NCBI GenBank assembly: GCA_008632985.1
Contig: QPGO01000023.1
Location: 555,681 to 619,680, forward strand
DNA from: Psammoneis japonica
Lineage: Eukaryota
Direction of reading: 5' to 3'
DNA length: 64,000 bases
Shown here: piece by piece, positions 1-39,665 of the stretch
Position numbering within the stretch: the stretch's first letter is position 1
Layout of the letters: every line of letters starts with the position of its first letter
Translations under genes and position numbers: made by a program
Notes under the pieces: generated by a model
Databases searched by the model: none
Told to the model about the DNA's origin: nothing
Seen by the model: the letters and a program-made list of their open reading frames with translations, nothing else

Positions 1-1399
1 ATTTGATGGGATGACAATTCAACAGGACCCATCCAATGCCCATTGCCGACTGCATGGAGCAGTTTGGGCAACAGGGATTTGACTTCTTTTTTTGGTTCTT
101 GTGCGATCTCATTGCATGGGCCGCCAAACAACATGACGTCAAATTCGAAACGCAACATTGGCAGGGAAAAAAGTCATGGCATCCTCACATCTGAATCTGT
201 CTCACATCCACAACAGTTTGTCCTTTACTTCTTCTCCTCTTGATCAGTCACAGCCATGCCAGCAGCACAATGCGCTGTTGTCATCACATCTCTGAATGCT
301 GACAAACAGTTCTGCTGGAGATTTGCCGCAGCTTTCAGCAACGATCAATGATGTTTTCCAATCTGACCGAGACTGCTCCCTCCATCCTCAAAACCGTCTC
401 CTGCATCAATGACCGTGGCCTCTTCCTCTGATGCCATTGCAATGGCAATTCTTGCCATCTGCATGCCTGCCTCATGCCATCTCAATCCAGGCTTGCCCAT
501 GACGGTTCCACTGGACCAGCCTGACCCAGTCAACCAGTCAAAGTTCCTGGAATGCTTCCAAGTCCTCTCTGGGCTTTGCCATTTTTCAGGCTGGTGCTCG
601 TCCTTGGTCTGCAAATGTGAACGCCACCATCAGTTTTTTCATGCTCTCTGCAAAGACATGCTGTCACATGATGGTGCAATGCATGGTGCCAGCACACGAC
701 AACAACAATGGCAAATCCACAGTGTTGTCAGAAAGGGCAGAAGTCCACAAAATGCTCTGAAAACTCAGCAACACCGCAGAAACAGTTTGTCATGATTGGT
801 TTGTCTGTGCTGCTCTCTGAGAGAGGGATCTCGAATGGAATTTCGACAAGGCTGTCTTCACCAGCTCCAAGACAAAAGGCATCGTGCCCCACCATTGTGG
901 ATGTTAAAAGGATGGACAGGTGACACGAACTCTTGAATGGAGTTTCGATGAAGGGTGCCATGCACCATCACCACCTGTCCTTATGAACCTCGTGACGCAG
1001 CAAGTGCTTTTGAACAACCAAAACACTGAAGAAAACCAACGCATCATGAAGAACAAAAGTCAAACCGCGGGGCAATGGAAAATCTACGTCAAGCGTCAGA
1101 TTTGCACCGACAAAATTCAAAGACATGTTGTTCATGGAAACATCAAAGCAGAGCATGGATTACAAAGTTGGACGGATGCCCCACGTGATGTGGGGAAACG
1201 CCAACTGCCATTCAATTGTGTGAGATCAATGTGAAGTGCGCAACAGTTCGCAATTCCATGGGTGAATTTTTCTTCAGAGATGTACAGCATGCATCTCAGG
1301 GATGTCATTGGCATTGTTTGAGAACAATGGGTTTGAGCATGATGGAAAAATGCAAAAGTGGAACGAGAAAAACATTCATGGTGGTGAATTCTGGATCGC

Positions 1400-2560
1400 G
1401 GCAGATGGCTGTTGAGCATGCTGGTCACTGACCAGGTCGGATCGTCAACAGGACGCAGACTGAAGATTTTGCCAACACAGCTGGGGCTCTCAAACGGACT
1501 TCCAACAACTGGCATCTTAGCCACCTTGCGTGCCTTGGGCGTCTTGAATTCTTCAACATCATCAAGGTTGGCGTGGGCGCTGACCAGTGGAGGGCTCTCG
1601 AAAGGTGACTCAAAGAATGGTTTCTCCGCCGTTTCCTCCGCCTCTTGCATCTTGTGGTCTTCGACACGGACAGAATCATTGATGTGTCGAGGGCCATTGA
1701 ACACCTCGCCTGCAGCGGGATCACGTGCACTCACCAAAGCACGACTGGACAGAGCATGATGAACGTCAGAGGCTGGACGAATGCAGTTGACGAAGACAGG
1801 AGTCTTAACTTCTTCCTCAGCCTCATGCATCTCGAACTCCTCGCCCGCAGCGGGATCGCACACTTTCCTCATGCCTGCATGGTTCACCATCTCCTGCGCT
1901 TCGAGCATCTTGCATTCTTCAACCTCTTCAAGGACGAAGTGGTTGGCGCATCGAGGGCTCTCGAACACCTCCCCCGCAGCGGGATCGCACACTTTCACCC
2001 AAGCACGACCCGATTTGGAGCATGGCTGAACGCAGTTGATGAAGGCATTAGTGTCAACTTCTTTCTGGGCCTCGTTCATCTCGAACTCCTCACCTGCAGC
2101 GGGATCACGAACTTTCGCAAGAGAACTGCCTGCTTGATGTTCAGAGCTTCACGGACTGCCATTGAAGAATGCTGTCGACACCATTTCCCGCGCATCCTGC
2201 ATCTTGCAGTCTTCGACCTCTTCAAGGACAGACTCGTTGATGCGTCGATGGCCATCGAATGTCTCCCCCGCAGTGGGATCGCGTGCTTTCACCAAAGCAC
2301 GACCCGACAGTCCCTGATGAACTTCGGAGCGTGGCTGAACACTGTTGACGAAGACTGGCGTCTTCACTGCTTCCTGGGCCTTGTGCATCTCGAACACCTC
2401 GCCCGCAGCGGGATCGCGCACTTTCACCAAAGGACGACACAACTGATCCTTGTCGAATTCGACGGGTGGCGGAATGCAGTTGATCTGACTGTCGTTCACC
2501 TTCCTTTGTTTGTCATGGCCCTGAACAATTCCCCCGCAGCAGGCGGTCTGCACATTTGTG
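1400..2560 (-). repeat. Degenerate coding tandem repeat (KV[C/R]DPAAGEVFE motif, ~7 copies) downstream of the GcvT pseudogene
   Basis: GCAGCGGGATC-like core recurs near 1711, 1848, 1977, 2097, 2269 and 2405, degenerate near 2535. Minus ORFs 1132-2079 and 2149-2604 show repeated DPAAGE(V/E/T)F peptides. Confidence 0.8.
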
Positions 2561-3900
2561 AGGCTGGCTGTTGTGAGGAATCCTGCAGAAGCGAGTTTTG
2601 ACAAAGGCCGGCTTCACCACCTGGGTCTTGTGGAAACGTGCCCCCACATTTTCGTCCACTCGAACGCAAAGCAGCACGTTTGTGCCGGTCTTGGAGAACA
2701 CCGTTTTCACGCAAGCCATGGCAATGGACATGCTGAGGCAGGGACCAAATGCGGCCGACGTCACTTGACCTGCAATGATGCTTCCCGTCACATGAGCATT
2801 TCAGCGTTCTCCTCTGGGACCTCAGTCGGGCACACAATGCCTGCGAGCTTTCGTGTCACCTTCTGAAGCCTGCCATCTTTGGTGAGGATGCGATCAGCAC
2901 CCAAGAATCTACCCTCTAGACGTCTGCGACGTGGGACGGTCCAGCCCAAGCTGGCTTCAACAGGGTTCACCGATTCGCCCAACTCCTTGCCCTTGGCACA
3001 GAGACCTGCCTCAAGGCGGAGGGTGTTCAAAGTGGTCAAGCTTCCTGGCATCACGCTGGGGTCTTCCAAGAGTTTGGATGCAAGCAAGACAGCCGACTTG
3101 ACAGCAGGGATGTGAAGCTCAAAGCCATCCTCGCCTGCAAAGCCGCGTCTGCAACAAAAAAGACAATGAAAGTTGGCCAAGCAAGCGGCAGTTTCAATCG
3201 CACGTGATGATGTCGGCACGCAAAGCAAGTGCAGTTGTCATCCTTGCCGAGCAATGTGGTGAACTTCCGTGTCACCAAGAAGACAAGTTTCTTTGTTGGA
3301 CATGAACGCCACGCGTTCCAAGTCAAAGTCCGGTGGAAGCAGCTTCTCCATTGCAGAGGACGAGCCGGGACCTTGCAGGGCCAAGATGGAATGTTGAAAG
3401 CACTCCATTTCAACTTCGCCGCAGAGCAGTTCCAACTGCTTGTTGAAATGCTGTTCGCACCAGTCGTGAGTGGTCATGACAAAGCGATCTCCCACATTTT
3501 TGATGATCGCATCGTCGATGATCCCGCCTGTTTCATTCGTCATGACGGACAAGATGCACCTGCCACGTTCAAGAGAGGCAATGTCTCCTGCAAGAATTCT
3601 CTCCAGGAACTCAACGCAGTCTTTTCCACGCCAAGATGTCTTTTGTCAAAGAGCAAGCACATGGAAAACATGGTTCGATTTAGATTTCATGCAAGAAGCT
3701 GTTTGCAATCCTGCCGGTGCGGACGAGACATGATGAACACACCTGAATGAGAAAGGACAAATCAAAGAGCGCTGCTTTTCCTTCGGAACGGCAGTGAAGG
3801 TGCTCTTGGATGGGTTGGTCGAGGCCGTCACCAACAGACTTTCCCTCTAGCTTGGATAAAAAAGCTTCGTTAACGCACAACAACATTGTCCACTGGCTCC
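2560..3900 (-). pseudogene. gcvT: Glycine cleavage T-protein (aminomethyltransferase)-like pseudogene, intron-containing and TpA-depleted
   Basis: Motifs in order: AALFDLS, FLERILAGDIASL, SVMTNETGGIIDD, LALQGP, GEDGFEL, LRLEAGLC, PVEASLGW, GQVTS..FGPCL..SIAM. Broken into several frames, no Tyr codons, intron donor near 3742. Confidence 0.8.
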
Positions 3901-5000
3901 ACTTTTCTTTGTGTGCTCAAGAAAGCAGGATACAAAGTTCAGCTTCTTTTTGAGCAGTTGCGTCAGATGATGTTGAGGGTTCGGATTGGCGGCCCTTTAG
4001 CGATCAAAATGATATGACGCAACGCAACAGGCAGGAAAGCTCAACTAATTGCATGTGTCAAAATTGCGTTGTTGAGCCGGTATGACAAAAACAGCTGACC
4101 TCAGTTGTGCCGGCGCGCAATCGTCCAACTCCCGTTCAGACATGATGACAGGCGACGACGACTCACTCGAGAGACTTACACACACATTGGACATTGGATG
4201 GAAAGCAAGGGACGAAGGCGGGCTTTTCTATCATGTCAGATATGTTGCGCATCGTTCAATCGCAAGTAGAATCCATTGCATCCAAAGATGATTCAACCAG
4301 TCACAAGCAATGCTGTTCTGAGAAGAACGACATTCCCTCGTTGAGAAGGATTTAACTTGTCATGAGAATTGCTCGTCTCATTTCGACGCACTGCCGACAT
4401 GGTGAATGTCACCCAATGTCTAACGAAAAGCAAGATCCGACCTTTACTGAGAAGCATATGGGTGGGCGAGAATCAAAACCGATAAGGAAACAGGATTCTC
4501 CTCCAACGTAGTTGCAAGCTCGTGAGGTATGTTAAAATCTCATGATATTACTTGTAAATCCGTACCTTTTCGATCTATACCTGATTAAAACAAGTAGCAA
4601 ACAAAAGAGCTGAGCTTCATGTGACTAAACCCCTGCAACCACTCGCGCAAACAGAGCAAAACATAAGAAAGAGATGCCTCATCTAAATCCCTTAGTGGTC
4701 ACGCTTGCGTTTCAAACGAAACTTCTAATGATCTCAAACTTTAATAATACATCACTGGCCTCTCTCTTTTATCGTTCAAGTGCTAGCCTCGGAAAATTGT
4801 GGTCTGATTCGCTGCTCAACTTGTGAAACTAAGTGTGCGTGGAATAGAGAGCCTTTACGGCCCATCGCATCCCCACCATGGTTTCGTTCGCAGAATCTGG
4901 TTTCGTCAAGGGCCGTACAAGCTACTTATGAACAAATGATATGCTCTCCTGTACTTACCATGAACCATGCAATGATACAAGCGCATTCGTGTCTATCTAT

Positions 5001-5408
5001 TCACGTCGACGCGGGCAAATCAGTCGCTCGCTTTCGTTTTCGTGATAGACTCGGAGTCGTTCTTAGACACGATTCGAGTGCTTGCGTTTCCTTTTCTTGT
5101 CCCATAATCGTCCCCTCCATGATTGCAATGTTTCGACGCAACTCATCCCGCATTCGTACCGCCGTCTTGATGGCATCTTCGGTTCCCTTTTGGTCCGTCG
5201 TGGACCGTTTGGCAGCAACAATAGGCCGACACGACGGAGCGCCACGTTCGTCGCAACCGTGCGGCTGTGTTGTCATCTGATTTCGATGAGGATGTCTTTG
5301 AATTGGAGTTGGGAGGTGATGATGATGATGATTTACCACTCGAGGGGGAGTGGCGGCAGCAGGAGGAGGACGAGTGGCGGGTGGTGTCGTTGCGTTGCTG
5401 GTGCTCAT
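5001..5408 (-). CDS. Hypothetical small protein with low-complexity N-terminus, coiled coil and basic KRKR tail
   Basis: ORF 5001-5444 with a heptad-like stretch (RMRDELRRNIAIMEGTIMGQEKETQALE); no family recognised. Confidence 0.4.
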   Translation of the reverse strand: MSTSNATTPPATRPPPAAATPPRVVNHHHHHLPTPIQRHPHRNQMTTQPHGCDERGAPSCRPIVAAKRSTTDQKGTEDAIKTAVRMRDELRRNIAIMEGTIMGQEKETQALESCLRTTPSLSRKRKRATDLPAST

Positions 5409-5579
5409 GGTTGTTGTTGCTTTCGTGCTTGTGAGGTGTTGCAATGCGTGCGCGGTCGACGGAAGGATGTCTCCCGGGTTACATTCTGTTGTGTACGACG
5501 AGCAGACGGAAGCATAATTCCGGGTTATGTTACGTGGATGTTGCTTTGATTTTCTCGCGAAAAAGATCCGACCGCCGAC

Positions 5580-6482
5580 ATGCCCATGATGCGATCTTCA
5601 CGACGCCATGGGCAGACATTGCTTGCTCTCTTTTCACTCACCAACACCAGGACGTCAAGTCTGAGTACCTTGAGTGATGTCATTGTTGGATCTTCAACAT
5701 TATCGAAAAGTTCAACCACGTCGTCACGACCGAAACAAACAAGCGTGACATCTAGTAGCTTGCAGCGAGTGTCGCAGAGAAGCGGTATTGTTACACCACC
5801 ACGACACGGTTTCATACTTCCTCGCTTCATGACATCTGCCTATGATGGTGAACCGAGTGATGGCACTGCTGGTTTGTCGGATTTGTCATACATTCCGTAT
5901 GAAACTGCACTCTCCAATGGCATCCAAGTACAGGTTGGTCCGTTTGATGAATCGGAATGGCAAGCAGGCATGGACTTGATGAATTTAATAATCCGTGAGG
6001 GAAAGAGTTGGCCATTTGATGGTGAATTTGAAACCATGGATGCTTACCGGGGTTACTTTATGTCTCACGCTGCCTTTGTGGTGAGAACATTGGAACCTAG
6101 TGTCGACGCAAACGGAAAAGCCGCACCGGAGGGTACTGTCGTGGGCTGTTTTTACATTAAACCCAATTATCCCGGTCGCTGTTCACACATTTGCAATGGT
6201 GGATTCATTACCAATCCAGCCTTTCGACGAATGGGAGTTGCCAAGCTCATGGGACAAGTCTTTTTGCGTTGTGCCCGCGATTTGGGATACAAGTCGGCGT
6301 ACTTTAACCTTGTCTTTGAATCCAATACAGCCAGTGTTGCATTGTGGGAATCATTGGGCTTTCAACGAGTGGCGGTATTGGAAAACGCTGCCGACTTGGA
6401 GGGAGTCGAGGGACTCGACACGGCCTTTGGATACCGTTTCGATTTGGAGAAACTCAGTGATGATTATCTCTTTACGATTTGA
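5580..6482 (+). CDS. GNAT N-acetyltransferase, Mpr1/Spt10-GNAT (azetidine-2-carboxylate acetyltransferase-like) type
   Basis: FYIKPNYPGRCSHICNGGF...RRMGVAKLMG...YFNLVFESNTASVALWESLGF matches this subfamily. The true start may be the later Met (MTSAYD, ~5829). Confidence 0.8.
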   Translation: MPMMRSSRRHGQTLLALFSLTNTRTSSLSTLSDVIVGSSTLSKSSTTSSRPKQTSVTSSSLQRVSQRSGIVTPPRHGFILPRFMTSAYDGEPSDGTAGLSDLSYIPYETALSNGIQVQVGPFDESEWQAGMDLMNLIIREGKSWPFDGEFETMDAYRGYFMSHAAFVVRTLEPSVDANGKAAPEGTVVGCFYIKPNYPGRCSHICNGGFITNPAFRRMGVAKLMGQVFLRCARDLGYKSAYFNLVFESNTASVALWESLGFQRVAVLENAADLEGVEGLDTAFGYRFDLEKLSDDYLFTI

Positions 6483-6880
6483 AAATGATGTTGCCCTCTA
6501 TGTAATCAAAGTCTGCTACAAAAGAACAAGTTGAGCACTAATTTAACCTGAAATCGATCAATAGCGCCATTGTACCATGACTTTCGTCCCTTCTTTCGGC
6601 GGGGCAGACTGTGGCGCTTATTTTTGAAAATTTGGTGTTCGTGAGACGTTTTATACGGTTATGTTTCCCGCGAATAATTCGCGCGCAATGCCGTTCCGAC
6701 TGAATGACGTCGTGATCTTTTCACGCAGAAAACATACCAAATCCTACGTACGAGCACGAAATCTCCCTCCGACGCACCAATGCTTTTTTCTGTTGGTCAC
6801 GCAACAGACACAAGACTTGCGCCAGCAAAGAAATTTTGTGTCGCTACAACTACGACAAACCAAAAAACAAACAGTAGACC

Positions 6881-9800
6881 ATGAGCGGTGCATTGGCAGT
6901 TGGTGCTGTGGCGGGTGCCTTGGCATCCCAAGCAGCCCGTCGCTTATCGGGTGAAAATCTGAGTGGCGCGGCAATAAGCGCTTCTGCCAACGACGGTGTG
7001 CAACAGAAAAATGTTGGAATCCTAGCCATGGAGGTTTACACGCCCTCCACTTTTGTCAAGCAAGAAGCACTCGAAGAACATGCCGGAGTGAGCAAGGGGC
7101 GTTATACAATTGGTCTTGGACAAGAGGGATTGGGTGTTTGTGGAGATGCCGAAGACGTCAACAGTCTCTGTTTGACTGTGGTTCATTCACTCTTGGAAAA
7201 GTGAGTAAAGTCCCGGGAAAAAGTTCTTTGTTTTGTTTTTACAACAGTTTTCTGATCTGATTTTGTTTCTTTTGTTCTAATAACTAGGTACGCCATTGAT
7301 CCCTCAGAAGTTGGGCGTCTCGAGGTTGGTACAGAGACGCTCGTTGACAAGTCCAAGAGTACTAAAACGATCTTGATGGATCTGTTTCCCGGCAACACGG
7401 ACATTGAGGGTGCTACCGTTGTCAATGCGTGTTATGGCGGTACAGCCGCATTGTTGAATGCCTTTAATTGGGTAGAAAGCGATGGATGGGATGGACGGTT
7501 TGCCATTGTTGTGGCTGCCGACATTGCTGCCTATGCCCGAGGTCCTGCCCGACCAACCTGTGGTGCCGGTGCAGTGGCTGTCCTTGTCGGACGAGACGCT
7601 CCTCTGTGTGCCAATCCAAAAGAGCGTGCGACACATGCCGCCAATGTATGGGATTTTTTCAAACCAGATCATACCGTGGAATATCCCACTGTGGACGGGG
7701 CTCTGTCACAAGTTTGTTATTATCAAGCGTTGGAGGACTGCTACAATCGCTTTGCGGACAAGATGGATAAACTTGGCAAGGCAGAGCAAAAGTCGTCCTA
7801 TTTTGATGCAGAGTCACCGGACTACTTTTGCTTCCACGCACCCTACAACAAGTTGGTACAGAAATCGTTTGCTCGTTTGTTCTTGTTGGATGCCCGCAGG
7901 GCACACGAACGCATGACGAATTCAGACGCGGAGGAAAAGAAGGAAGCAACACCCAATCAGGAAGCTTTGGCCGAGTGGCTCACCAAACCCATTGAAGAAA
8001 CCTATTCCGACAAGGCACTGGAGGGTGCTCTAAAGAAGCTTGCAGCTCCTGCATACAAGGTGCGCTTGACGGATTCAAATGCAGCGTCCAAGGCTATAGG
8101 CAACACGTACACGGCCAGTGTCTTTTTCGGTTTGGCATCTCTAGTGGATCGCGTCGGTGGAAGAGGAGAATTGACACCCGGTAAACAAGTGGTTGTATTT
8201 AGTTATGGGTCTGGTGCCCTTGCCAGCATGTACAAGCTTCGAGTGTACGTGAGCTCTTGAGAATTATGCAATGCTTTGTTTTCTTGCATAAGTCTCACCT
8301 TATTTGTCATTCTCCTGCATCTCGCTTCTTCAGCCGTGAACCCACATCACAGACTCGTTTCACAGTATCCAAAATGGTGGAAGCCTTGGCTTTGACCAAG
8401 CGATTGGCTTCACGTGAAGAAGTGCACCCATCCGAGTTGGACCACGCCTTGGAAACTCGTGCACGCATGCATCGTGCAGGCGCTCCTACTCTCCCGTGTA
8501 CCCCACTGTTGGACGTCTATTTCCCGGTACTATTATCTCAACGGAATTGATTCCAAATGGACGCGATCCTACTCTCGCGTCCCTCTGGATGCAGCCATGG
8601 TGTCGCATGGTTCGTCTCTGGCGCCTCCTATTGTGCTGCGGCTTCACGATCGGGATGCCGTTTCCACTCCGGTGACTGGCAAACTCGAGGTGCTGACATC
8701 TGCTGCGGCGGGTGACTCGGACAAAATTACAGAGGCTCGTCGTCGTGTCGCTTGTGTCATTACTGGAACATCGGCAGGACTGCCTGGTGGTGGCAAGGTG
8801 TTTCGAGCCGACAACATGGCTCGACTAGTGGCTGGCGAACAGTGCATTGCGCCCATTAGCGGCAGTACAAAAATGGCGCTATTGGATAAGAATGTGGTTC
8901 AGATTAAAAAGCTTCCCGATGGAACAATTAAGCGCATCCCTGTTGACAAGGAATCGCAAGTGGTCAAGCTGGCAGCTCAGCTCGGAAGCCTTGATTTGAC
9001 GGCCTCTTATGGCGTCCCGCCCGGATTGGCGGAAACCATGGATGTTGCTGCACAGGTGGCTGTAGCCGCCGGAATGGAAGCACTCAAGTCTGCAGGTCTC
9101 GTAAGCGGCAAATCGAACTCTCCCGAGGAGTGGAAACTGCCGGAACAATATCGTGATTGCACTGGTGTGGTGTATGCGTCGAGCTTTCCTGCCATGGATG
9201 CCGCAGTGGGCGAAGTAATGCGTTTCTTGCAATCCAAAACAGTTGGCGCGGCCGATACCATGCGCCTGATTTCCGCGCTGAGGAGTCGCCTCTTGCGAGC
9301 TTCTCCCGAGCGAGAGCTGTCGGACGATGATGAGGCTGCTTTTGCCAGGCTCTTGTCTCGCGCACGCGAAACAGATGGCATGAACAGTACGGACGAATTG
9401 TCGGTATCTTCTTCCTACGAGTTTGACCGCAAATTCTTGTTCCGTGTGCTTGTATTGGGAAATGCTCAGCTTGCGCAGCTGGCGGGATGCAGAGGTCCCA
9501 ACACCCAGACGAATGCAGCTTGTGCCGGAACAACACAGGTAAGACTACTGGCGAGACTTGCCTCTTGTTATCCTCTTCGATTGCTTACTCACATTTTCCC
9601 TTTCAAAACAACATAGGCTATTGCTATGGCACAAGACATGCTAATCTCAGGTCGCGCTGAACGTGTGGTAGTCGTTGCTGGCGATAACGGGTCTGGTGAA
9701 ACTCTCCTACCGTGGCTCGGATCGGGCTTTCGTGCACTTGGCGCTGCTTCACTGTTGAGCTGTAGAGGACGCGGCCTGTCCATTCGACTTGCGCAGATCT

Positions 9801-22671: not shown

Positions 22672-23321
22672 CCCCGCTCCCTGAATCGCGTGCATCGCGC
22701 ACGATGCACACCGATTCAGACCTCTCGTGCTTTTCCCCCGCCGAGCTTGAATCGGACTGACGGCATAAATCTTACAGTTAACACTAAGGTTGTTCCTCCC
22801 CGAAAGCGAAAAAGCGCCAAGTTCAACCGTTCTTATCGAAGCTGACATGCAAACATTGGGTATTTATGGCGGGAAAACTTGCGTAGCTTCTACGCGTGTG
22901 CACTGTGGGCGATGCACTTAGTAGGTTTCTACGTCTTTTCTACGTGTGAAATCGCCATAATTACCCGGATTTGCTTCCCTAACCCGGAAATGTTTCTAGA
23001 CAGTACAACGCGGTCGGAAGTTTTCGCGCCTTGTTATCGTGTTGTTGTCGCGTACTTTCCGAGTGGTAGTCAATGAAACAATTATTGGAGGACGAGCTGA
23101 GCCAATCAAACCCTAGAAAAACAGCATAAAGCACGTCAAGCGTAGTAGAAGACGAGGACGTGTTGATATTTATTAACAGAGGCTCTTGAAGAGACAAGTT
23201 TTAGCGATAAAGTAGTGCCAAAAAAGACGTCACGTGCATCGCACACGATGCACGTCAGCGATTTTGGGCGATTTTCTGAATTTCCCGTGTGCATCGTGCG
23301 CGATGCACACCGGGAGCGGGG
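22672..23321. mobile_element. piggyBac-type non-autonomous element (MITE), ~650 bp
   Basis: TTAA at 22668-22671 and 23322-23325 flank termini CCCCGCTCCC...GGGAGCGGGG. Subterminal palindromes GTGCATCG-N4-CGATGCAC at ~22690, ~23234 and ~23289. Confidence 0.85.
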
Positions 23322-23539
23322 TTAATGATGATGCAGTGAACAAAGTCTGCCTGTCGGTGGGTTGTTGGCGCCAATCTTGCTGGCGCCGAAGAGCGACAAT
23401 CGGCACATGTCTCAGCATGACGGAAGCCCGAGCGTGTTGCCAACAATGTGTGGCAGAGATGTCACTGGTAATCACAAGCCACTGAGAGTCGTCGAGCTCA
23501 ATCCGTGTGGCCATTTTTTTTTCTTCGCCATCCTGGCCT

Positions 23540-24925
23540 TTTCTCCAACAGCAGCAGACTTGAACTTCCCAACTCCAGCATGAGAGGATCCCATGAGATG
23601 AGACACCAAGCACCAACAACCTGACAACTGCAAGCTGAGGGTGCTGGTGGTTTCTGGTGGGCCCCAGGTGCAACTTTAAGAACTGCAACTGAGCATTTCA
23701 AGGTTTTTGCCGTGTGGCACTGTGTGGCCGTGTGGCCCCATCATGTCACCTTCTTGTCCCCACCAACACCCGCAGAGACTTGTTGATTTTCCCAACTCCA
23801 GAGTGTGATGATCCCTTGTGACAGTGCCAACCAACCCAACAACTGCAAGGTGAGGGGGCATTGGTGGTGTCCAGTGAACCCCAGGTGAAACGTCAAGGGC
23901 TGTGGCTGAGCGTTGCAAGGTTGGTCTTGTGGTGGTGTTGTGGCCCCGTGTCTCATGTTGTCCCCAACAGCAGCAGATTTGAGTTTCCAAACTCCAGAGT
24001 GCAAGGACCCCCTGACAGTGCCTGCCAACATGACAACAGCAAGCTGAGGACACTGGTGGTGACTGGTGATGGACCCCAGATGAGCCTTCAAGAGCTGTGG
24101 TTGGGCGCTGCAAGTTTGATCTTTTGGCATTGTGGCCCCACGACATCACCTCCTTGTCCCCATCAACCGGAGCAGACTTGAGTCTCTAACCTCCAGAGTG
24201 AGTGGACCCCATGATGGCACCAACAACAACCTGACAATGGCAAGCTGAGGGTGTTGTTGGCATCTGGTGTGCCCCAGATGTGACTTTAAGAACTGCCACT
24301 GAGTGTTGCAAGATTGAACTTGTGGTGCTGTGACGCCCCCATGTCATCTTGTCCCCAACAGCAGCAGATGTTGTTGCAAGGACCCCACCACAATGGCGCC
24401 AACCATCCTGACAACTGCAAGCTGGGGGCGCTGGTGGTCTCTGATGGATTCCAGGTGAGACTTTGACAACTGTGGCTGAGGGTTGCAAGGTTTGTCTTGC
24501 AGCAGTGTTGTGCCTCCACATGCCACCTTGTCCCAAAAAACAGAGGAGCAGACTTGAGCTTCTCAACTCCATGACAGCAAAAGGGTCGCATGTGGTGGCA
24601 CCAGCCAACCAGACAGCTGCAAGCTGAGGACAACACTGGCAGCATCTGGTGGACCACAGGCAACACTGTGGGAACCGTTGCTGCGCATTGCAAGGTTGAT
24701 TTTGTGGCATCGTGGCCCTGGCTGTGTCTCCTTGTCCCCAGCCCCAACAGCAGCAGACTTGACTTCCCCAACTCTGGCATGAAAGGACCCCATGACAGCA
24801 CCAACAAACCTGACAACAACAAGTGGAGGACACTGCTGGTGGTGTCTGGTGGACCCCAGGAGAGACTTTGGGAACTGTGGCTGAGTGTTGCAAGGTTGAT
24901 CTTGTGATGTTGTGGCCCTGTGTCA
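23540..24925 (-). repeat. Diverged ~200-bp tandem array, inverted relative to the 26.8-30.8 kb array
   Basis: Recurrent CAACAGCAGCAGACTTGA and ACAACTGCAAGCTGAGG motifs; the reverse complement matches CCCTCAGCATGCAGTTGT of the plus array. Confidence 0.8.
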
Positions 24926-25620
24926 CCTTTTCTCAAACAGCAAAAAAGACTGTGACCCACTCAACGGCTTGATTGATGAGTGGCAGTGTTTGAGCAAAGC
25001 TTCAAAAGGCAGTGCACCAGGAGCACCAGAGACATGGAGTTGTTTTGCATTGGCAAAATGTCTTGAGCAGAATGGAGAAATTTGCATTGTCACATTTGAA
25101 ACAAGCCTCTCTCTTTGTTGGAAGCAACAAAGAGACAGCTGCTGTGAACAGGCAACCCACCCATCTTTCATTTTATTCTGATCTAAAGTTCAAGCAAGAG
25201 CAGATCTCATTGGAGGATTGGTTGGGGTTTGAGTCAGAGATGTGAGGTTGAGCTCTTTGCTGGTTGCATGCTGCACAATTTTTTTGGCTTGCAGCCTCAC
25301 CAAGCTTTCCTGCCATGAGTTGTTGAGCAAGTTTTCATGGCCAATCTTGCTGATGACACAATTGTTTCAATGTGGCACCAAGTCTTCCATGCTGACCTTT
25401 GCACACAAAGTCTCAATGTCAGGCAAATTTTCTGTTGCCAAAGCCTTTGTTTCAACTGCCACTCATGCAGTCTGGGTCCTGGAGTCAGGTGTGCAAAGAA
25501 GTTGGTGCTGACACTTTGACATGCATGGCATCCAAGCAACCCTGCAATCTTTTGCAAGAGATGCAACTGGTGCATTCACAGATGACAAGAAAGAGCTGCA
25601 CAGACAGTGGACACAATTTC
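24735..25620 (+). repeat. ~0.9-kb segment duplicated in direct orientation at ~34027-34920
   Basis: Shared strings in the same order in both copies, e.g. CCCCAGCCCCAACAGCAGCAGACTTGACTT, TCAACGGCTTGATTGATGAGTGGCA, GATCTAAAGTTCAAGCAAGAGCAGATCTCAT, CAGTCTGGGTCCTGGAGTCAGGTG. Confidence 0.85.
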
Positions 25621-26789
25621 AAATTTGGAGAGCACCAGGAACAGAATGTTGAACAAGGACAGGATGGAAGAGAGCAAGGGAGAATGGCGATGGAGAAGAG
25701 TTTGAGGCACAAGAAATTCCATGAAGTGTGTTGATGAGCCTCTCACAAGGTTCTCATCAACACAATCATCTCTGTGTGTGGCTGACAAATTTGAGAAAGA
25801 TGGGTGCATCAGAACAAAGAGACTGGGCAGGAAATGGATTGTTGGCAAATGTGGTGCAAAAGGTGTCACATTCTGAAGATCGTCACTGTCTTGTTGAGAG
25901 TTGCAGAAGCTCCAGCAGGCAGTGCTCACCCCATGTGTGGCAAGGCAGAGCTCCCCTTTCCATTGGTGGTTGGCAAGAAAAAAGCCACTTGGAGATCAAT
26001 GTTTGGCTCTGCATTTGGGGCTGTGACGCCATTGTCATGTGCTTCATCAGGAGACAACAAGGATGAGGGATGCTCAGATGTGCAGACCCCAAGCAACAAC
26101 CTGCAATCATGTCAGGGGAAGGGATTTTTTGTGATGAGCACAGGTTGCAAGGCATGTGAAAGCACCACCCTGAAGGGAATGCCAGGCACCAGCTCTGGAT
26201 TTTTCCTGTGGCAATGTGCTGAGATCTGATGGCCCGTGCAGCTCAAGGGCATGCTGGACATGCTGCAAATGGTGTGTCATCTCTGGAGCTCAAGCAAGCC
26301 AACAAAGAACACACCAGCATGCTTTGTGCTTTGTGCAAGTGACAACAAAAAATCAACTGCCAATGTCATGGCATTTTCTTGTCAAAGAGCTTGAAGTCTG
26401 CTTGATCTACTTCCACTCACCTGAAATCTGCTCTGCTCGCATTTGCAAAAAAAACAAGCTCCTTGTGTCACCTTGTGCAAGAAAATCTGTTGTGGCCACA
26501 TGCACGTGTGCCAATGCGCAATGTAGAGCCTGTGAAGAGCAGGTTCATTGTCCCATGTTGTCACTGATTTTTGTGTTGTGAATTGCTGGCAACGTGACAA
26601 TTTGTTCCAATTTGAGCTTCCAAGTGGCTGGAGGGGGCAGGGGTCACAGCAACCCACAAAGAACCACACACACAGAATCCGTGCATGTTTTTGTGCTGCT
26701 GTGCAATGGATGATTCTGAGGTGTTCATGCTGCACGAGAAAGGAGGAAAAGGTCTGCTGCGTGCATGGTGTGTGAATCTTTTTTTTGTC

Positions 26790-29700
26790 ACCACAGTTCT
26801 CTCAATGTTCCCTGGGTTCCATCAAAGACCCCCAACACTGCGATCAGTCTGCAGCTGGTGTGTTGGCAGGCCATGCCAGTTTGTCCTTTCACTCTGGAGA
26901 TGGAAGAGTTTGAAGTCTCACTCTCTTTTCTGGCTGGGTGATGAAGAAACTTGGCTTCAGCCACACACAACTGCACCAGATGGGCCTTGCAGTGCTCAAC
27001 CACAGCTCTCACAGTGTTCCACAGTTTCCACCAGAGTCCACCAACATTCTCAGTCTGCAGATGATGTCTTTGTTGGTTGTGTCATTGTTTGCTTTTTTGC
27101 TCTCTGGAGTTGTGAGCCCCAGCTCTGTGATGGGCCATGCGATGGGCATTGCAGCACTCAACCACATTTCTCAAAGCACTCCCTGGGCTTCACCAGAGAC
27201 CATCATCATTGCCCTCATCTTGCAGTTGTTGTGCTGATCAATTGCACATCAGGGTGTCCTTTCCCACTGAAATGTGGGAATTTCAATTCTGGCTGTGGCA
27301 TGAACAAAACAACTGCTGTTTGCTGCTGCAAAAGATGTGTGTGCAACACTCAAGCAACCACATTTCTCAAAGTGTTTCTCTTCCCCTGGAAGAGACCTTA
27401 AAGTCTCTCAGCCTGCAGTTGTTGGGTTGTTTGGTTGCACTGGGATGTCCCATCCCATCACACTGGAGTCAGGAATTTCAGCTCACTCTTGCATCGATGA
27501 AGTGACTTGGGGTGCAATTGCAGCCAATGAGCCATGCAACTCTTGTCTGCTGTTCTCATGTTGCTCCCCAGACAACCCTGGGGACCTTTGATGGCCTCAA
27601 ACTGCACTTGTTTGTTTGGTTGGTTGCACCAGTGTGTGTCCTTTCACTCTGCAGCAGTTGGAATTTCAGGTCTCACTCTGGCATGCACTCAGTGAGTGGG
27701 GGCTGCATCTGGACCACATGTGTGTTGTTGCAACACTCTGCCACCAACCTCAATGTCTTCTTGGGTTCCATTTGAGATCTTCAATGCTCTGAGTTTGCAG
27801 TTGTTTCATTGGTTTGTTGCACAAGGGTGTGCTTTCACTCTGGAGTCAGGAGTTTCAGCTCTCAATCTGGCACATGGATGAAGTGACAGGTGGCTGCAAC
27901 TGCACCAGATGAGCCTTCTTGCAACAATCCATCACCATTCTCAAAGCATTCCCTGGGTTCCTCTAAAGACCTTCAATGCCCTCAGCATGCAGTTGCTGGG
28001 TTGGTTGTTTGCATCAGGGTGTTCTTTCTCTGAGGAGTCAAAAGTTTTTCTGCTCAAACTCTGGCATTCAGCCAGTCAGTGCCTGGTGGTTGCAACTGGT
28101 CCAGATGGGCCTTGAAACACTCCACCGCTGTTCTCAAAATGTTCCCTGGGTTCTGTTTGACACATTCAATGCCCTCAAAATGCAGTTGTTGGCTTGGTTG
28201 TTTGCACCAGGGTGTTCTTTCACTGTGGATTTGGGAGTTTCTGCTCTCACCATGTCATGGATTAAGTGACTGCTGGCTGCAACTGCACCAGATCATGGGC
28301 CTTGCTGCAACACTCCACCACTGTTCTCAAAGTGTTCCCTGGGTTCCTTTGAAGACCTTCAATGCCCTCAGCATGCAGTTGTTGGGTTGGTTGTTTGCAT
28401 CAGGGTGTCCTTTCTCTGAGGAGTCAGGAGTTTTTCTGTTCTCACTCTGGCATGCATTGAGTGTCTGGTGGCTGCAACTGCACCAGATGGGCCTTGCAAC
28501 ACTCCACCACCATTTTCAAAGTGTTCCCTGGGTTCCTCTGAAGAACTCAAATGCCCTCACCATGCAATTGTTGGGTTGGTTGTTTGCATCTGGGTGTTCT
28601 TTCACTGTGGATTTAGAAGCTGCTGCTTCTGCTCTTGCCATGTCATGGACCAAGTGATTGGGGGCTGCACCTGCACCAGATGAGCCCTTCAACACTCCAC
28701 CATGGAGGATCTCAAAGTGTTCCCTGGGTTCCAACAGATGTCTTCAATGTCACAAGCATGCAGTTGTTGGGTGGGTTGATTTCATGAGGATGTTCTTTCT
28801 CTGAGAAGCCAGCAGGGGGTTTTCTGCTCTCACTGTGGCATGCACTCAGTGACTGGTGGCTGCAAATGCACCAGATGGACCTTGCAACCTTCCACCGCTG
28901 TTCCCAAAGCATTCTCTGGGTTCCTCTGAAGACCTTCAATGCTCTCTGCAAGCAGTTGTTGGGTTGGTTGTTTGCATCAGGGTGCTCTTTTTCTGAGGAG
29001 TCAGGAGTTTTTCTGCTCAAACTCTGGCATGCGGTCAGTGCCGGGTGGCTGCAAATGCACCAGATGGGCCTTGCAACACTCCACCACTGTTCTCAAAGTG
29101 TTCCCTGGGTTCCTCAGAAGCCCTTCAATGTCCTCAGCATGCAGTTGTTGGGTTGGTTGTTTGCATCTGGGTGTTCTTTCACTGTGGATGGAGGAGTTTC
29201 TGCTCTCGCCATGTCATGGATCAAGTGCTTCGGGGCTGCACCTGCACCAGATGAGCCCTTCAACACTCTGCCACTGTTCTCAAAGCATCCCCTGGGTTTC
29301 ATCAGAGACCTTCAATGCCGTGAGCATGCAGTTGTTTGGTGGGTTGGTTTCATGAGGATGTTCTTTCTCTGAGAAGTCAGGAGTTTTTTCTGCTCTCACC
29401 ATGTCATGGATTGAGTGACTGGTGGCTGCAACTGCACCAGATGGGCCTTGCAACACTCCACCACTGTTCTCAAAGTGTTTCCTGGGTTCCTCTAAAAACC
29501 TTCAATGCCCTCAGCATGCAGTTGTTTGCTTGCTTCTTGTTTGCATCAGGGTGTTCTTTCACTGTGGATTTTGGAGTTTCAGCTCTCACCATGTCATGGA
29601 TTGAGTGACTGGTGGCTGCAACTGCACCAGATGGGCCTTGCAACACTCCACCACCATTCTCAAAGCATTCCCTGGGTTCCTCTGAAGCACTTGCTTCAAT

Positions 29701-30790
29701 GCCATCAGCGTGCAATTGTTGGGTTGGTTCTTGGTTGCATCTGGGTGTTCTTTCATTGTGGATTTGGGAGTGTCTGCTCTCACCATGTCAAGGATTGAGT
29801 GACTGGGGGCTGCACCTGCACCAGATGAGCCCTTCAACACTCCACCACTGTTCTCAAAGTGTTCCCCAGGTTCCACTGGAGACTTTCAATGCCATGAGCC
29901 TGCAGTCACTGGGTGGGTGGGTTTCATGATGATGATCTTTCTTTGAGAAGTCAGGAGTTTTTTTGCTCTCACCGTGTCATGGGTCAAGTGACTGGTGGCT
30001 GCAAATGCCCAGATGTGTCTTGCAACACTCCACCACTGTTCTCAAAGTGTTCCCTGGGTTCCTCTGCAGACCTTCCATTCCCTCAGCATGCAGTTCTTGG
30101 GTTGGTTGTTTGCATCAGGGGGTTCTTTCACTGTGGATTTAGGAGTTTCTGCTCTCACCATGCCGTGGATTAAGTGACTGCTGGCTGCAACTGCACCAGA
30201 TGGGCCTTGCTGCAACACTCCACCACTGTTCTCAAAGTGTTCCCTGGATTTCTCTGAAGACCTTCAATGCCCTCAGCATGCAGTCATTGGGTTGGTTGTT
30301 TGCATCAGGGTGTTCTTTCTGTGAGGAGTCAAGAGTTTTTCTGCTCAAACTGCAGCATGCATTGAGTGCCTGGTGGCTGCAACTGCACCAGATGGGCCTT
30401 GCAACACTCCGCCACCCTTCTCAAAGTGTTCTCTGGGTGCCTCCAAAGAACTTCAGTGCTCTCAGCATGCAGTTGTTGGGATGGTTGGCTTGGTTGCATC
30501 AGGGTGTTCTTTCACTGTGGAGCGGGGGGTTTCAGCTCTCTCACTGTGGCATGGATCAAGTGACTGGGGGGTGCAAGTGCACGAGATGAGCCCTTCAACA
30601 CCCACCCCAAATTCTCAAAATGTTTGTTGGGTTCCATGTGAGACCTTCAATGCCCTCAGCCTGCAGTTGTTGGGCTGGTTGGTTGCATCAGGATGCTCTT
30701 TCACTTGTGGCTTTGTCTGGTGCAGCTGCACTGGGCAAGTCTTGCATCTCTCAATCACTGTTCTCAAGTGTTCTCTGGCTTCCTCATGGG
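26790..30790 (+). repeat. ~190-bp satellite-like tandem array, ~20 units, with higher-order variants
   Basis: CCTGGGTTCC...CTTCAATGCCCTCAGCATGCAGTTG recurs near 27951, 28144, 28337, 28526, 28722, 28914, 29103, 29290, 29481, 29670, 29864, 30053, 30242, 30431 and 30627; more degenerate copies extend back to 26811. Confidence 0.95.
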
Positions 30791-33399
30791 ATCAATGCTT
30801 TCAGAGAGAACTTTGGTGACAAACAGCCAAAGATGCTTGTGCTTTTTCTGTTTTTCTCCTGTGGCACAAACACATGAGATCATGCCATGCACACCAGTGC
30901 AGAAACCAGCGCAGATTCTGTGTGTTGATTTTGTTGGGTCGTTGTGACTGGTGATGTGTCACTTGGCTTCTTTTGTTTTCCCTGCTGAGGGAGTCATCTA
31001 AAAAAGACAATGGACAAGAAAGCCGCAACACAGCTCATGGACAAACAGTGCTGCAACGATGGAGTGTGAGATCCCAAGATCCACACTTTTGTTCAATTCC
31101 AACATTCATCTGCCGCAGTCCTCTGGAGCAAATGACGCAACATGCAATGCACTGCAGCGCACTGCACATGAGCACCAGTGGGTGCAGTGGAGAGAGAGAA
31201 TGCTGCACACAGCATGGCCGTTGGTTTGTTGCAACATGCTTCTGGCCATTGTTTTGCTTGGTTGATTGTTGTGTTGGTGAGGTGCTTCACTCAGTTCTTG
31301 AAGTGCACATGAATCCTCATGGAGCAAAGCACAGACTGTGCTGAGATTGCCTGCAGAAGAAATCTGCCAGAGATGAGGGAAAAAATCTGCTTGATTTTTT
31401 TTGTAAAATGGCCAAAATCTGCTTTGCTCGCCAGCTCTGATGTCGGTTTTTGAGTTTTTGGTGACACTTGCTTTGTGGCAAAATCTTGTCAAGGGCAAGA
31501 TTGTCAAAGTCTTGCAACAGCACACTTTTGTGTGATGTTTGCAGAAGGGCAGTGCACAGGCAATGGCTCAGCACACAGATCTTGAAGCATGCAAGCCTCT
31601 GATTTATTCTGGGGATGATGTCAGCACGTGAAGGAAGGTGAGGGCAGTGCTGCTGCTGAACAGACTGCAGCACCCGGCCCATTGCAGGTGGCTGACTCTG
31701 GAAAATGTGGTTGCTCTCACTCAGAATTGAAATTTGTTCAGCAAAATGCCTGTGTTTTCATCAAGCACTCCTTCATTGTGAACAAACTGATTTTGACTGT
31801 TGGCTGAATTGGCACAGCAGGAAACCAAACTTGAGGAAATTTGGTCTCACACAGTGCATGGTGGGCTCTTGACTGGATTTGTTTGAAACTTGCACTTGAC
31901 CACAGCACAACAATTGCAAATGTTGGAGTGTCAGTTGGCAACCAAACTGGCAAAATGGGAAACAACAATGAATGAAACATGGCTCCTTTCTGTGCACACA
32001 CGGCACACCCAAGTTGATCTCATCAATTTTTGTTGTTCATTGGCTGGAGTGCACTGACAACTTGAATTGCTCATTTGCCAACTGGTGTGCATTTTGCAGT
32101 TTTGGTTTCCAACAATGTTTCATTTCCATCCTGGCAATGTTTGACATGTTTGGTGCATGCTCTCATTTTCCCCATGCTGCCACTCCATTGCCTTTGCTCC
32201 CTCTCTGTTCTAAGAGCCACCGCTTCACTCCATTGTCTGTCTCATTGTCTCTCACATCTTGGTGTTCTTGCAGAGCTGGCTTTTGTGACAGCTTTTCATT
32301 GTGAGACACAACAGCAATCCCTGGCAAAAGAAGGCAGAGAAGTCATCAGTTTGGCATGATGTTGCCTTTGGCAAGTGTCACAAGAGTGCTGATTTTCTGC
32401 CTGCCTGTGTGCAACATTGCAGTGCTTTGTTTCTTGTCCTTGGCTGTTTTTGTCAATTTGGTGTCTGAGTTTCAAGAAACAAAGAAAGTGCAAAATGCAA
32501 GCATTGGCTTGTTTTGTTTGCTGTGGGCTGTCTCCTCCCACATCACACTTCTGACCTTTTGCCTTTAAAGTGGCTTTTCTTTGTGTTGGCATGTGCAGAC
32601 TTTTGGTTTTTGTTGGTGCCTTCCTGCAATGCCGTTGTTGTTTGTGTGCTGCTTGGGCTCATTCTGTGTTTTTATGTTGTTTTGTGTGGTGCTGGCAATG
32701 TGCCTTTTTGCCATGGAGCCAAGCCAGCAGTCCCAGCAAACATTGCCTGTGACATTTTGCAAGTGGTCATTCTTAAAAAAAATGGCCTTTTGTCGCACTT
32801 GTTTTAAAAGTTTTAAGTTGTGTTTGAATCAACTCAAATGAGTCTTCACATCGGTTTTTTCATGTGAGCTCTCTCATTTGGCAGCTGGATGTTGAGCAAA
32901 TGTTTCAATCAGATGTGGCCGCACATCTGTTTTTGAAAAAGATTGAAGTCCAAGTTTTCATGATCTCTCAACCAGCTCTTGTCAAGAATGAAATTTTTGC
33001 ATCTTTCTTGCTGCTTGTGCTGGTCCATTCAGCTTGTTTGTTTGTTTGTTTGTTTGTTTGTGAGCTGCTGCTGCAGCTCTGATCTTTGCAGCTGACCCAC
33101 ATGTGCACAACAACCTTGTTGCTGTTGCGCTCTCATTGTGGTTGAAGAAACTTGCAGCCAGGCAGGAGGTCAGAAGAGGTCATGGAGTTGGTCATGCAGG
33201 TGGCCACAGATGGGAGCTGGTTGAGCAAGAAGCCAACCAGGTCAGCCCCACCACGGCACCAAACACACGCCCAAAAGCTGCAAAGAGCCAGAGCAGCAGC
33301 CCCCCCCAGAGACATGGGGGCATGATGCTGCAGCTGCAGCACCTCCAGCCAACATTCCTGCTCCCCAACAAGCAGCCACCCCCATGCCAATGTGGTCAT

Positions 33400-34920
33400 G
33401 TGCTGTTGTGGCCCCATGTCACCTTGTCACCAGCAGGTTGGTGCAGGCTTGAGCTTCCCAACTTCAAAGTGAAGTGACCACATTGAGCAGAGCAAGGATG
33501 GCATTGCTTTTGTGCAGTTGTGGCACCCCATCATGCCCTCCCAGCCAAAAGTGCATGCTTCAATTTTCAAACTCCAAACTCCAGCAGAATGAAAGGGCCA
33601 CTTGATCATGGGTGGTGCTGCTGGCCAACCTGACAACAGCAAGTTGAGGGCATTGGCATTCTCTTGTGGAGACCCCAGGTGACACTGCAAAAAAGCTGCA
33701 GTTGAGCAGTGCAAGGTGTGCACTGCATTGTGGTTGTTGCCCAATGTCACCTTGTGCCAACAGGAGGAGCAGAAATGAGCTTCACAGCTCTGCAGTGTGT
33801 GAAAGGAACATCTTGTGGTGCCAACCAACCCAACAGTTGCAAGCTGAGGACACTGACAGCATCTGGTGGTTCCCAGGCAACACTTCAAGAACTGTGGTTG
33901 TTCCTTGGGCATTGCAAGGTTGATCTTGTTGTTTGCTGTCACCCAATGTCATGCTGTCTCCAAACAGCAGCAGACTTGCATTTCAAACTCTCTAGAGTGA
34001 AATGACCCATTGTGATGGCACCAACCCCAGCCCCAACAGCAGCAGACTTGACTTTCATCCTGACTCCAGTGTGAAAGGACCCCATGACAGCACTGACAAG
34101 CCCAACAACAGCAAGCAAAGGAAACTGACAGTGTCTGGTGGACCCCCCACAGGAGAGACTTTGGAAACTGTGGCTGAGCATTGCAAGGTTGATCTTGTGT
34201 TGTTGTGGCCCTGCATCACCTTTTCCCAAATGGCAACAGACTGTGGACTGGCTCATTCAACGGCTTGATTGATGAGTGGCAATGGGTGAGCAAAGCTTCA
34301 AAAAGCAGGTGCACTGGGAGTGCCAGAGACGTGGAGTTGTCATGCAGTGGGGGGGGGGGGGGGGAGAGCAAAATGTCTTGAACAGAATGGAGAAATTTGT
34401 GGTGGCATTTTTGAAACAACAAGCCTCCTCTCTTTGTTGGAAGCAATGAAGAGCTGCTGTGGACAGGCAAGCCATCCTCCATTTCATCCTGATCTAAAGT
34501 TCAAGCAAGAGCAGATCTCATGGGACGATTGGCTGCTGGGATGATGTGAGTCAGGAATGTGAGGTTGAGCTTTGTTGATTGCACACCACACAATTTTTTT
34601 ATGGACTGTCAGCCTTGCCAAGCTTTCCTGACATGAGTTGTCAAGTGAGGCTTCATGGCCAATCTCGTTGATGACACAGTTGTTGCAATGTGGTGGCGCC
34701 AATCATCCATGCCAACCTTTGCACAAAGTCTCAACATCAAGCAAGTTTTCTGTTGCCAAAGCCTTTGTTGTGCAACTGCCACTTGTGCAGTCTGGGTCCT
34801 GGAGTCAGGTGCATGGAGAAATGGGTGCTGGGCACTTCAACAAGCATGGCATCCAAACAACCCTGCAATCTTCTGCAAGAGACAACAAGGAAGAGCTGCA
34901 CAGACAGTGAACACAATTTG
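33400..34920 (-). repeat. Second minus-orientation array plus second copy of the 24735-25620 segment
   Basis: Same unit motifs (CAACAGTTGCAAGCTGAGGACACTG, GCATTGCAAGGTTGATCTTG) followed by the duplicated unique segment. Confidence 0.75.
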
Positions 34921-39479: not shown

Positions 39480-39665
39480 TAAAACAAAGCACTCGATTAT
39501 TGTTTCCGTCTCAATCTCCCAATGCTGTCTGCGCGTCCGTTAGGCATTCGTGACCAACTCCGCCGCGCTTCGAATCAACGTCGTACAATTCTACGCAGAT
39601 TCTACGAACCTCCAAACCGCCAAAGCGGCCACGACTTATTAGCACTCGGCACACAAAGAGCGACC

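Follow-up and report, generated by a model that had tools for sequence, protein, structure and literature searches.

Near-complete loss of TpA with gain of TpG and CpA in two discrete blocks of a pennate diatom chromosome

The DNA considered here is a stretch of 64,000 nucleotides from the genome of Psammoneis japonica (GenBank assembly GCA_008632985.1, contig QPGO01000023.1, positions 555,681 to 619,680 of the forward strand), hereafter called the window, in which the dinucleotide TpA (TA) has been almost entirely converted to TpG (TG) and CpA (CA) within two discrete blocks. The first block, R1, lies at the left end of the window and contains a gene copy with the GcvT-like (aminomethyltransferase) fold together with DNA downstream of it. 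The second and larger block, R2, which is absent from the preliminary description of this DNA, extends over 14 kb and is made of degenerate repeats, both tandem and dispersed, among them a 189-base satellite. The features that enter the argument are the following, in coordinates of the window, with the strand given where one applies and the basis of each assignment in brackets.

1–3847: block R1, TA nearly erased, CpG (CG) largely kept (dinucleotide counts)
1–1130: TA-free stretch of about 1.1 kb lying 3′ of the GcvT-like gene, with no recognisable coding content and CG partly depleted (Pfam and fine-bin profile)
1600–2440, minus strand: C-terminal repeat-coding part with six RDP(A/T)AGE motifs, in frame after GcvT, with a TGA at 2149–2151 (frame translation)
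2513–3886, minus strand: GcvT-like gene copy without tyrosine (Tyr) (Pfam GCV_T and GCV_T_C)
near 3151–3246, minus strand: second intron of this gene (joint 3150>3262 in contigs)
3640–3742, minus strand: first intron, with the donor GTGTGT at 3742 (joint 3639>3743)
23,215–37,300: block R2, 14 kb, TA and CG both lost, TG and CA gained (dinucleotide counts)
23,215–23,530: left margin of R2, TA already lost, CG still dense (bins 23,251–23,500 hold 2 TA and 20 CG)
27,250–30,700: 189-base satellite, 18 units aligned, with TG and CA alternating at shared sites (unit alignment)

Two blocks nearly devoid of TpA

With the dinucleotide frequencies of the rest of the window taken as the expectation (background), R1 holds 12 TA where 158 would be expected (binomial P 7e-53), the observed-to-expected ratio (O/E) of TA being 0.05, and among 384 equally long background windows the TA count never falls below 121. 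The scarcity of TA over some 3.8 kb, from which the preliminary description had started, is thus borne out by counting. That description had also regarded CG as retained, which holds for most of the block, where 181 CG are found against 212 expected (O/E 0.71, background 0.98), but not for the leftmost 1 kb (1–1000), in which the fine-bin profile falls to a CG O/E of 0.25–0.54. The right edge of R1 is sharp and lies near 3848, and the left end is open, with the block continuing past the start of the window. Over 3751–4500 the TA O/E of 0.30–0.38 stays within the background scatter, there being six further background 500-base windows at an O/E of 0.35 or less; a separate, partly mutated margin at 3848–4500 was therefore rejected. 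What had been taken for a hypermutated gene copy does contain such a copy, but the affected region is wider than the gene, since it takes in 1–1130 and leaves the window at the left.

In R2, counted over 23,530–37,290, both dinucleotides are lost, with 31 TA against 566 expected and 84 CG against 760. On the left side of the block the loss of TA begins about 300 bases before the loss of CG, and on the right side both return near 37,300. None of the 69 open reading frames (ORFs) of at least 90 codons in R2 has a Pfam match above cut-off, two matches below the cut-off being at chance level, and Rfam and tRNA scans of the window gave no match. A table of all 16 dinucleotides places TpA at an O/E of 0.03–0.05 and CpA and TpG at 1.5–1.9 across the two blocks, as compared with a TA O/E of 0.45–0.77 in the flanking DNA, so that with edges at about 3848, 23,215 and 37,300 the depletion is confined to discrete regions.

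The deficits are matched by gains. In R1 the balance amounts to 146 TA and 31 CG lost as against 54 TG and 107 CA gained (161 together), no further dinucleotide being depleted there, and in R2 (23,530–37,290) to 535 TA and 676 CG lost as against 676 TG and 466 CA gained (1142 together). Because the losses of TA, and with it of CG, are offset by gains in exactly the products that transitions would predict, what has taken place is conversion and not plain loss.

Conversion in place, flank bias and authenticity of the sequence

The GcvT-like gene in R1 is assigned to its fold by matches to PF01571 (E 3e-18 and 6e-17) and PF08669 (E 2e-9), all past the gathering scores, and its frames contain zero Tyr. 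A search of 5.8 billion clustered proteins gave a single close relative, P0001, which comes from a Logan contig, has 433 residues (58–63% identity) and shares the domain order of the window gene, RDPxTGExFE repeats included; other GcvT proteins are at most 37% identical to the protein of the window. Five Tyr residues of P0001 can be aligned, and the window has cysteine (Cys) at four of them and valine at one (P0001/window pairs HDRYEEHF/HDWCEQHF, MEYFQH/MECFQH, IAMAYV/IAMACV and RFYKIP/RFCRIP). The Tyr-free frames, with Cys where the family has Tyr, are among the traces of mutation that the preliminary description had listed for this gene, and the two others are equally present: the donor of the first intron reads GTGTGT at 3742 on the minus strand, as compared with GTATGT for the VPS4 donor near 40,085, and the codon before Arg in the RDPAAGE repeats alternates between GTG (three times) and GCA (twice), with GTT in one further copy. 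The donor region of the second intron (3151–3250, minus strand) reads GCAAGG, where GTAAGG would be canonical, and may represent a GTAAGG altered by TA>CA. The gene belongs to a GcvT-fold family with C-terminal RDPxxGExFE repeats, and these repeats match no Pfam family. No relative of the protein was found in viral contigs, and metagenome contigs yielded one weak related locus (L001, 32% identity).

The origin of the changes can be read from repeat copies. Among the 18 satellite units, CA/TG is the commonest double difference: pairwise comparison of the copies gives 2181 double differences, of which 367 are CA/TG and 107 belong to the second most frequent type. In ten dinucleotide columns TG and CA each occur in two or more copies; of these columns, 28, 71 and 165 retain TA, and 53 and 128 retain CG, in a few copies. 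The peptide repeats of R1 contain eight dinucleotide columns with both TG and CA, four of which have CG in the third copy, whereas three repeats from unaffected parts of the window, taken as controls, have 1, 0 and 1 TG/CA columns. Copies that alternate between TG and CA with few TA or CG survivors show that the changes arose in place and on both strands, and the four R1 columns in which CG, TG and CA occur together show that CpG decay has been active in R1 as well. The earlier proposal of a regional A>G change at TpA on both strands thus agrees with the mass balance, with the alternation of TG and CA in the copies and, as described below, with the steps at which the window differs from the contigs of a public run.

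The same copies bear on the explanation by native composition or selection, according to which the blocks would come from a TA-lacking donor or TA would have been avoided, be it in relation to transposons, nucleases or RNA stability. Such an origin would account for the sharp edges and for blocks that are unlike their flanks, but satellite copies that differ as TG versus CA at one site, with few TA or CG left, point to conversion after amplification, the depletion spans non-coding DNA and both strands, and the replacement of conserved Tyr by Cys in a normally Tyr-bearing family is damage and not adaptation. It is accordingly regarded as very improbable.

An A>G outcome with T or U directly 5′ of the edited A is also produced by enzymes that act on RNA, since ADAR-type A-to-I hyperediting prefers a 5′ U and ADAT/TadA deaminates A34 after U33. 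Unlike in these cases, both DNA strands of the blocks are altered in an interspersed manner, introns are kept and tandem copies are altered independently. A runs test on the order of TG and CA gives z = 0.08 in R1 and 0.62 in R2, with no strand tracts, and this interspersion, together with the retained introns, makes it unlikely that edited RNA was copied back into DNA. A retrocopy produced by RNA editing and reverse transcription was therefore rejected, TG and CA both being in excess and the introns at 3640–3742 and about 3151–3246 being present in the DNA.

Conversion further depends on the flanking bases. The 43 surviving TA comprise 29 YTAR, 11 YTAY, 2 RTAR and 1 RTAY (Y, pyrimidine; R, purine), whereas in the background these classes make up 16, 27, 25 and 31% of TA (Fisher P 2e-13); the corresponding survival is 0.25 for YTAR, 0.056 for YTAY, 0.011 for RTAR and, from its single survivor, 0.004 for RTAY. 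Arithmetic on these counts is consistent with losses that are additive per strand and about four times faster after a purine, the survival of the mixed classes being 0.033 as predicted and 0.034 as observed. If the survivors were new TA formed from CA or TG, the flanks of TG and CA would lead one to expect YTAR only about one quarter of the time. As for the products, gains of RTGR/YCAY and of RCAR/YTGY are equal in R1, and in R2 they are skewed towards RCAR/YTGY, where the comparison is confounded by CpG decay and satellite amplification.

Whether the sequence is real was assessed with three public runs of one sample, the contigs of which were compared with positions 1–9000 of the window. Contigs of the run X1, which are assembled from exact words of 31 letters and hence derive from accurate reads, depart from the window at 4, 5 and 6 letters over 1–966, 1041–1405 and 2542–3007, respectively, and are likewise TA-poor; their word depth inside R1 is 49–56, as compared with 48–57 for most contigs of the flanks, and the rate of difference is similarly low inside and outside R1, with single-base insertions or deletions at about 1 per kb. 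The differences include an extra T behind 2792, supported at a depth of 48.6 of 48.6, which restores the frame of the GcvT-like gene, interrupted in the window by a one-base break near 2792, so that X1 is not simply the same consensus; the break itself reflects an error of the assembly or a difference between strains. A second run, X2, behaves like a transcript library, judging from contigs that skip GT..AG stretches of 87–103 bases, although none of the runs is recorded as RNA. Spliced, transcript-like contigs cover the GcvT part, those listed differing from the window by 4–9%, and an X2 contig of a related copy spans the region of the second intron with 12 other letters; over 1–2100 X2 gives no cover.

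The comparison of the window with X1 rests on 40 of the 278 rows of differences. In 18 of the rows listed every X1 contig differs from the window, and 15 of these 18 are transitions in a pyrimidine–purine (YR) step, six involving TA and nine CG. In five of the rows TA of X1 faces TG or CA of the window, and in one TA of the window faces TG of X1; CG of the window faces TG or CA of X1 in four, and CG of X1 faces TG or CA of the window in five. Since YR steps, by arithmetic on the dinucleotide counts, make up 48% of positions, a share of 15 out of 18 suggests that mutation at the remaining TA and CG continued after the lineages split. At 2842–2843 the window has TG, one related contig CA and another TA. 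Position 2918 in the GcvT part is overlain by five or more distinct X1 contigs, and other copies diverge from the window at 3857–3871, beside the TA boundary, a pattern that looks repeat-linked. Copy number was judged here by counting distinct contigs and not by summing their depth.

These data also speak to a technical artefact, in which modified bases would have been miscalled in a long-read assembly, 5-methylcytosine (5mC) as T and modified A as G. The frequency of single-base insertions and deletions relative to X1 resembles that of long-read consensus errors, and the five of 18 rows with TG or CA in the window and TA in X1 are what such miscalling would produce. However, the X1 contigs (depth about 57) have the same TA-poor sequence with only a handful of extra TA, miscalling of a palindromic step on the two strands alike should have left numerous TA and CG behind in the consensus, where few are present, and the differences run both ways, the window having CG at the four sites noted above where X1 has TG or CA. 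The preliminary description had itself allowed for such an artefact; the contigs of this one sample carry the TA-poor sequence, and miscalling is held to be exceedingly improbable.

Known systems and candidate mechanisms

A hypermutation with this signature has been measured in mutation-accumulation lines of the chlorarachniophyte Bigelowiella natans, in which 231 of 302 nuclear point mutations are reported to have fallen in two integrated viral regions, 230 of these 231 de novo mutations being A>G or T>C and all 230 lying on TpA; 124 TpA-poor, CpA+TpG-rich clusters and 324 low-TpA coding sequences are described in the genome, and an ADAT2-like DNA adenine deaminase is proposed by the authors (Mettrop et al., bioRxiv 10.64898/2026.01.13.699255). 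A system of this type can therefore no longer be called undescribed, as the preliminary description had suggested for the window; the link to silencing that it had also raised would be a putative one. The diatom case resembles what the preprint reports in being exclusively TpA>TpG/CpA on both strands, in being confined to regions and in combining TpA depletion with a gain of CpA and TpG. The two differ in host, a diatom (stramenopile) here and a rhizarian chlorarachniophyte there; in saturation, TpA being at an O/E of 0.03–0.05 here as opposed to a reported rho of 0.45 in the region of B. natans derived from a nucleocytoplasmic large DNA virus (NCLDV); and in their targets, which are a satellite and a host-like GcvT copy, in which viral homology was not found, as opposed to integrated viral DNA. 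In addition, CpG is lost in one block here and survivors show the YTAR bias, while the main text of the preprint makes no mention of CpG or diatoms, nor of “context” or “flanking”, and the mutation rate was measured in the B. natans lines, whereas here the signature is known from the sequence alone. We conclude that the diatom case is of the same kind as the process in B. natans, and is distinguished from it by its saturation, a target in which viral homology was not recognised, the CpG decay alongside and the YTAR survival rule. In the literature searched, natural and strictly TpA-directed A:T>G:C hypermutation of chromosomal DNA is represented by this one 2026 preprint on one chlorarachniophyte, with no other natural TpA>TpG/CpA hypermutation of DNA and none in diatoms.

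Repeat-induced point mutation (RIP) of Neurospora and other ascomycetes is likewise a regional transition hypermutation with a dinucleotide context and sharp borders, which degrades repeats and gene copies. Its direction is the opposite one, as had been pointed out in the preliminary description, since RIP turns CpA and TpG into TpA and thereby enriches TpA, whereas in the window TpA is erased and CpA and TpG are raised (O/E 1.5–1.9). RIP is moreover fungal and dependent on duplication, whereas here some near-identical repeats escape and DNA is affected for which there is only a near-identical X1 contig. Fungal RIP was rejected, as TpA is depleted instead of enriched (O/E 0.03–0.05) and the host is not a fungus.

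The decay of CpG that is driven by 5mC corresponds well to the CG>TG/CA changes in R2 and to part of the changes in R1, the loss of CG being accompanied there by a gain of TG and CA, and diatoms are reported to methylate CG in transposable elements (PMC9998398). It cannot, however, yield the loss of TA, which is near complete in R1 while CG is mostly intact, as the preliminary description had argued, and which to the left of R2 reaches about 300 bases past the CG-depleted zone. With TA loss at about 92% and CG loss at about 15% in R1, and both near saturation in R2, the TA process is much faster per site than the decay of CG.

The co-occurrence of the two changes could also be explained by error-prone patch repair, in which mismatches from the deamination of 5mC in methylated repeats would recruit a low-fidelity polymerase that miscopies TA. 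A>G at WA (W, A or T) is the signature of DNA polymerase eta, as in antibody hypermutation. CpG decay and TpA loss do occur together in R2, and differences of both kinds separate the window from X1 in R1. AA and TT, on the other hand, are undepleted in R1 and R2 (O/E 1.21–1.26 and 1.17–1.21, as compared with background values of 1.15 and 1.11), so that the motif is TA and not the WA of a polymerase of the eta type, and the loss of TA is near complete where CG is still dense, namely in R1 and in the left margin of R2, which makes it independent of prior CpG decay. We consider this route to be quite improbable.

A different enzymatic route would be a modification of the thymine of TpA in repeat or silent DNA, for example to 5-hydroxymethyluracil (5-hmU), followed by mispairing or misrepair to give T>C, which at the palindromic TA cannot be distinguished from A>G. 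An enzyme that makes 5-hmU has reportedly been linked to transposon silencing, which would count in favour of this route. The 5-hmU of dinoflagellates is described as enriched over repeats, with studies of the 1980s giving a preference for TA and TC contexts, but the base-resolution mapping of 5-hmU in Breviolum is described as yielding no sequence motif (PMC11071213). None of the literature consulted gave 5-hmU data for diatoms, and in the blocks TC is undepleted (O/E 1.22 in R1 and 0.95 in R2, background 1.13). Thymine modification is therefore thought unlikely, if still worth keeping in mind.

The reading preferred here, to which a probability of roughly 65% is assigned, is that a locally targeted TpA→TpG/CpA process in a pennate diatom chromosome, with a signature as in B. 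natans, has run nearly to saturation in both blocks. Such a process would turn A:T into G:C at TA on one strand or the other and would act on sharp-edged domains, that is, on the satellite block and on the GcvT-like gene copy together with its downstream DNA. Its efficiency would be about fourfold lower when a pyrimidine precedes the T of TA, which would let YTAR sites outlast the others. In the core of R2, the presumably older block, CpG would also have decayed to TpG and CpA, most simply through deamination of 5mC. As to the chemistry, an enzyme that deaminates adenine in DNA to inosine is the most likely agent; what is targeted would presumably be signalled by silent or repeated chromatin, and the process may serve as a genome defence.

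Several points weigh against this reading. TA is palindromic, so that a hit on A is not separable from a hit on the T of the opposite strand. The conversion is read from composition and from repeat copies, and X1 represents one sample and may be the window's own assembly data. With regard to targeting, 1–1405 is TA-free, yet the long X1 contigs listed there are all near-identical to the window, by which this part looks single-copy, while near-identical inverted repeats at 37.7–39.3 kb (85–98% identity) and a 247-base tandem repeat (43.5–44.2 kb) keep normal TA. Unlike the B. natans regions, neither block showed viral or foreign homology in Pfam searches of the R2 ORFs or among viral and metagenome contigs; a motif of the satellite, searched with all its YR steps degenerate, gave 0 matches in viral contigs. 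Saturated mutation could mask the origin of the targets. Finally, ApT is low in R2 (O/E 0.76, background 0.94) and GC is somewhat raised, of which the conversion of TA and CG gives no account.

A saturated fingerprint in a pennate diatom would mean that the process also exists in another major lineage, to which transformable model species belong, and would show that satellites and host-like gene copies, and not viral inserts alone, can be its targets and that it outruns the decay of CpG. The YTAR survival rule supplies a check on candidate enzymes, each of which would have to show the corresponding flank preference. More tentatively, and with the odds somewhat against it, stramenopiles and rhizarians might share an enzyme-driven, chromatin- or repeat-guided defence by DNA rewriting, which would erase TpA, with a preference for RTAY, from DNA that is silent, repeated or foreign, and at a much higher rate than CpG decays. 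If that were so, the phenomenon in B. natans would be no oddity of one lineage but a widespread “anti-RIP” of the SAR (stramenopile, alveolate and rhizarian) supergroup, and diatoms would offer a genetically tractable route to the enzyme, possibly a natural DNA adenine editor. Blocks of this type also have a practical side, as they distort compositional scans and gene prediction in diatoms through the absence of Tyr and of TAA and TAG stops and through long false ORFs.

Flanking genes and unaffected repeats

The flanks of the blocks carry ordinary housekeeping genes, two of which place the host. The named best matches of the HMG-CoA synthase exon are Seminavis robusta (74%), Haslea ostrearia (72%) and a Bacillariaceae species (67%), and those of the XPF/ERCC4 ORF are Seminavis (66%), Amphora coffeaeformis (65%), Mayamaea (61%), Nitzschia inconspicua (59%) and Pseudo-nitzschia multiseries (59%). 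The best matches of both genes overall reach 74–80%, and all the named ones are raphid pennate diatoms. A fungal host was rejected on the grounds that the named best matches of both genes are all diatoms; the host is a pennate diatom and thus also distinct from B. natans.

Directly between R2 and VPS4 there is a nested inverted repeat (37,383–39,481), with arms at 37,383–37,501/39,363–39,481 (85% identity) and at 37,732–38,185/38,685–39,319 (85–98%), in which TA and CG are normal and which the process did not touch. The tandem repeat further to the right consists of three 247-base units with 88% matches (43,518–44,247), and starts in the 3′ part of an ORF with a pseudouridine synthase domain.

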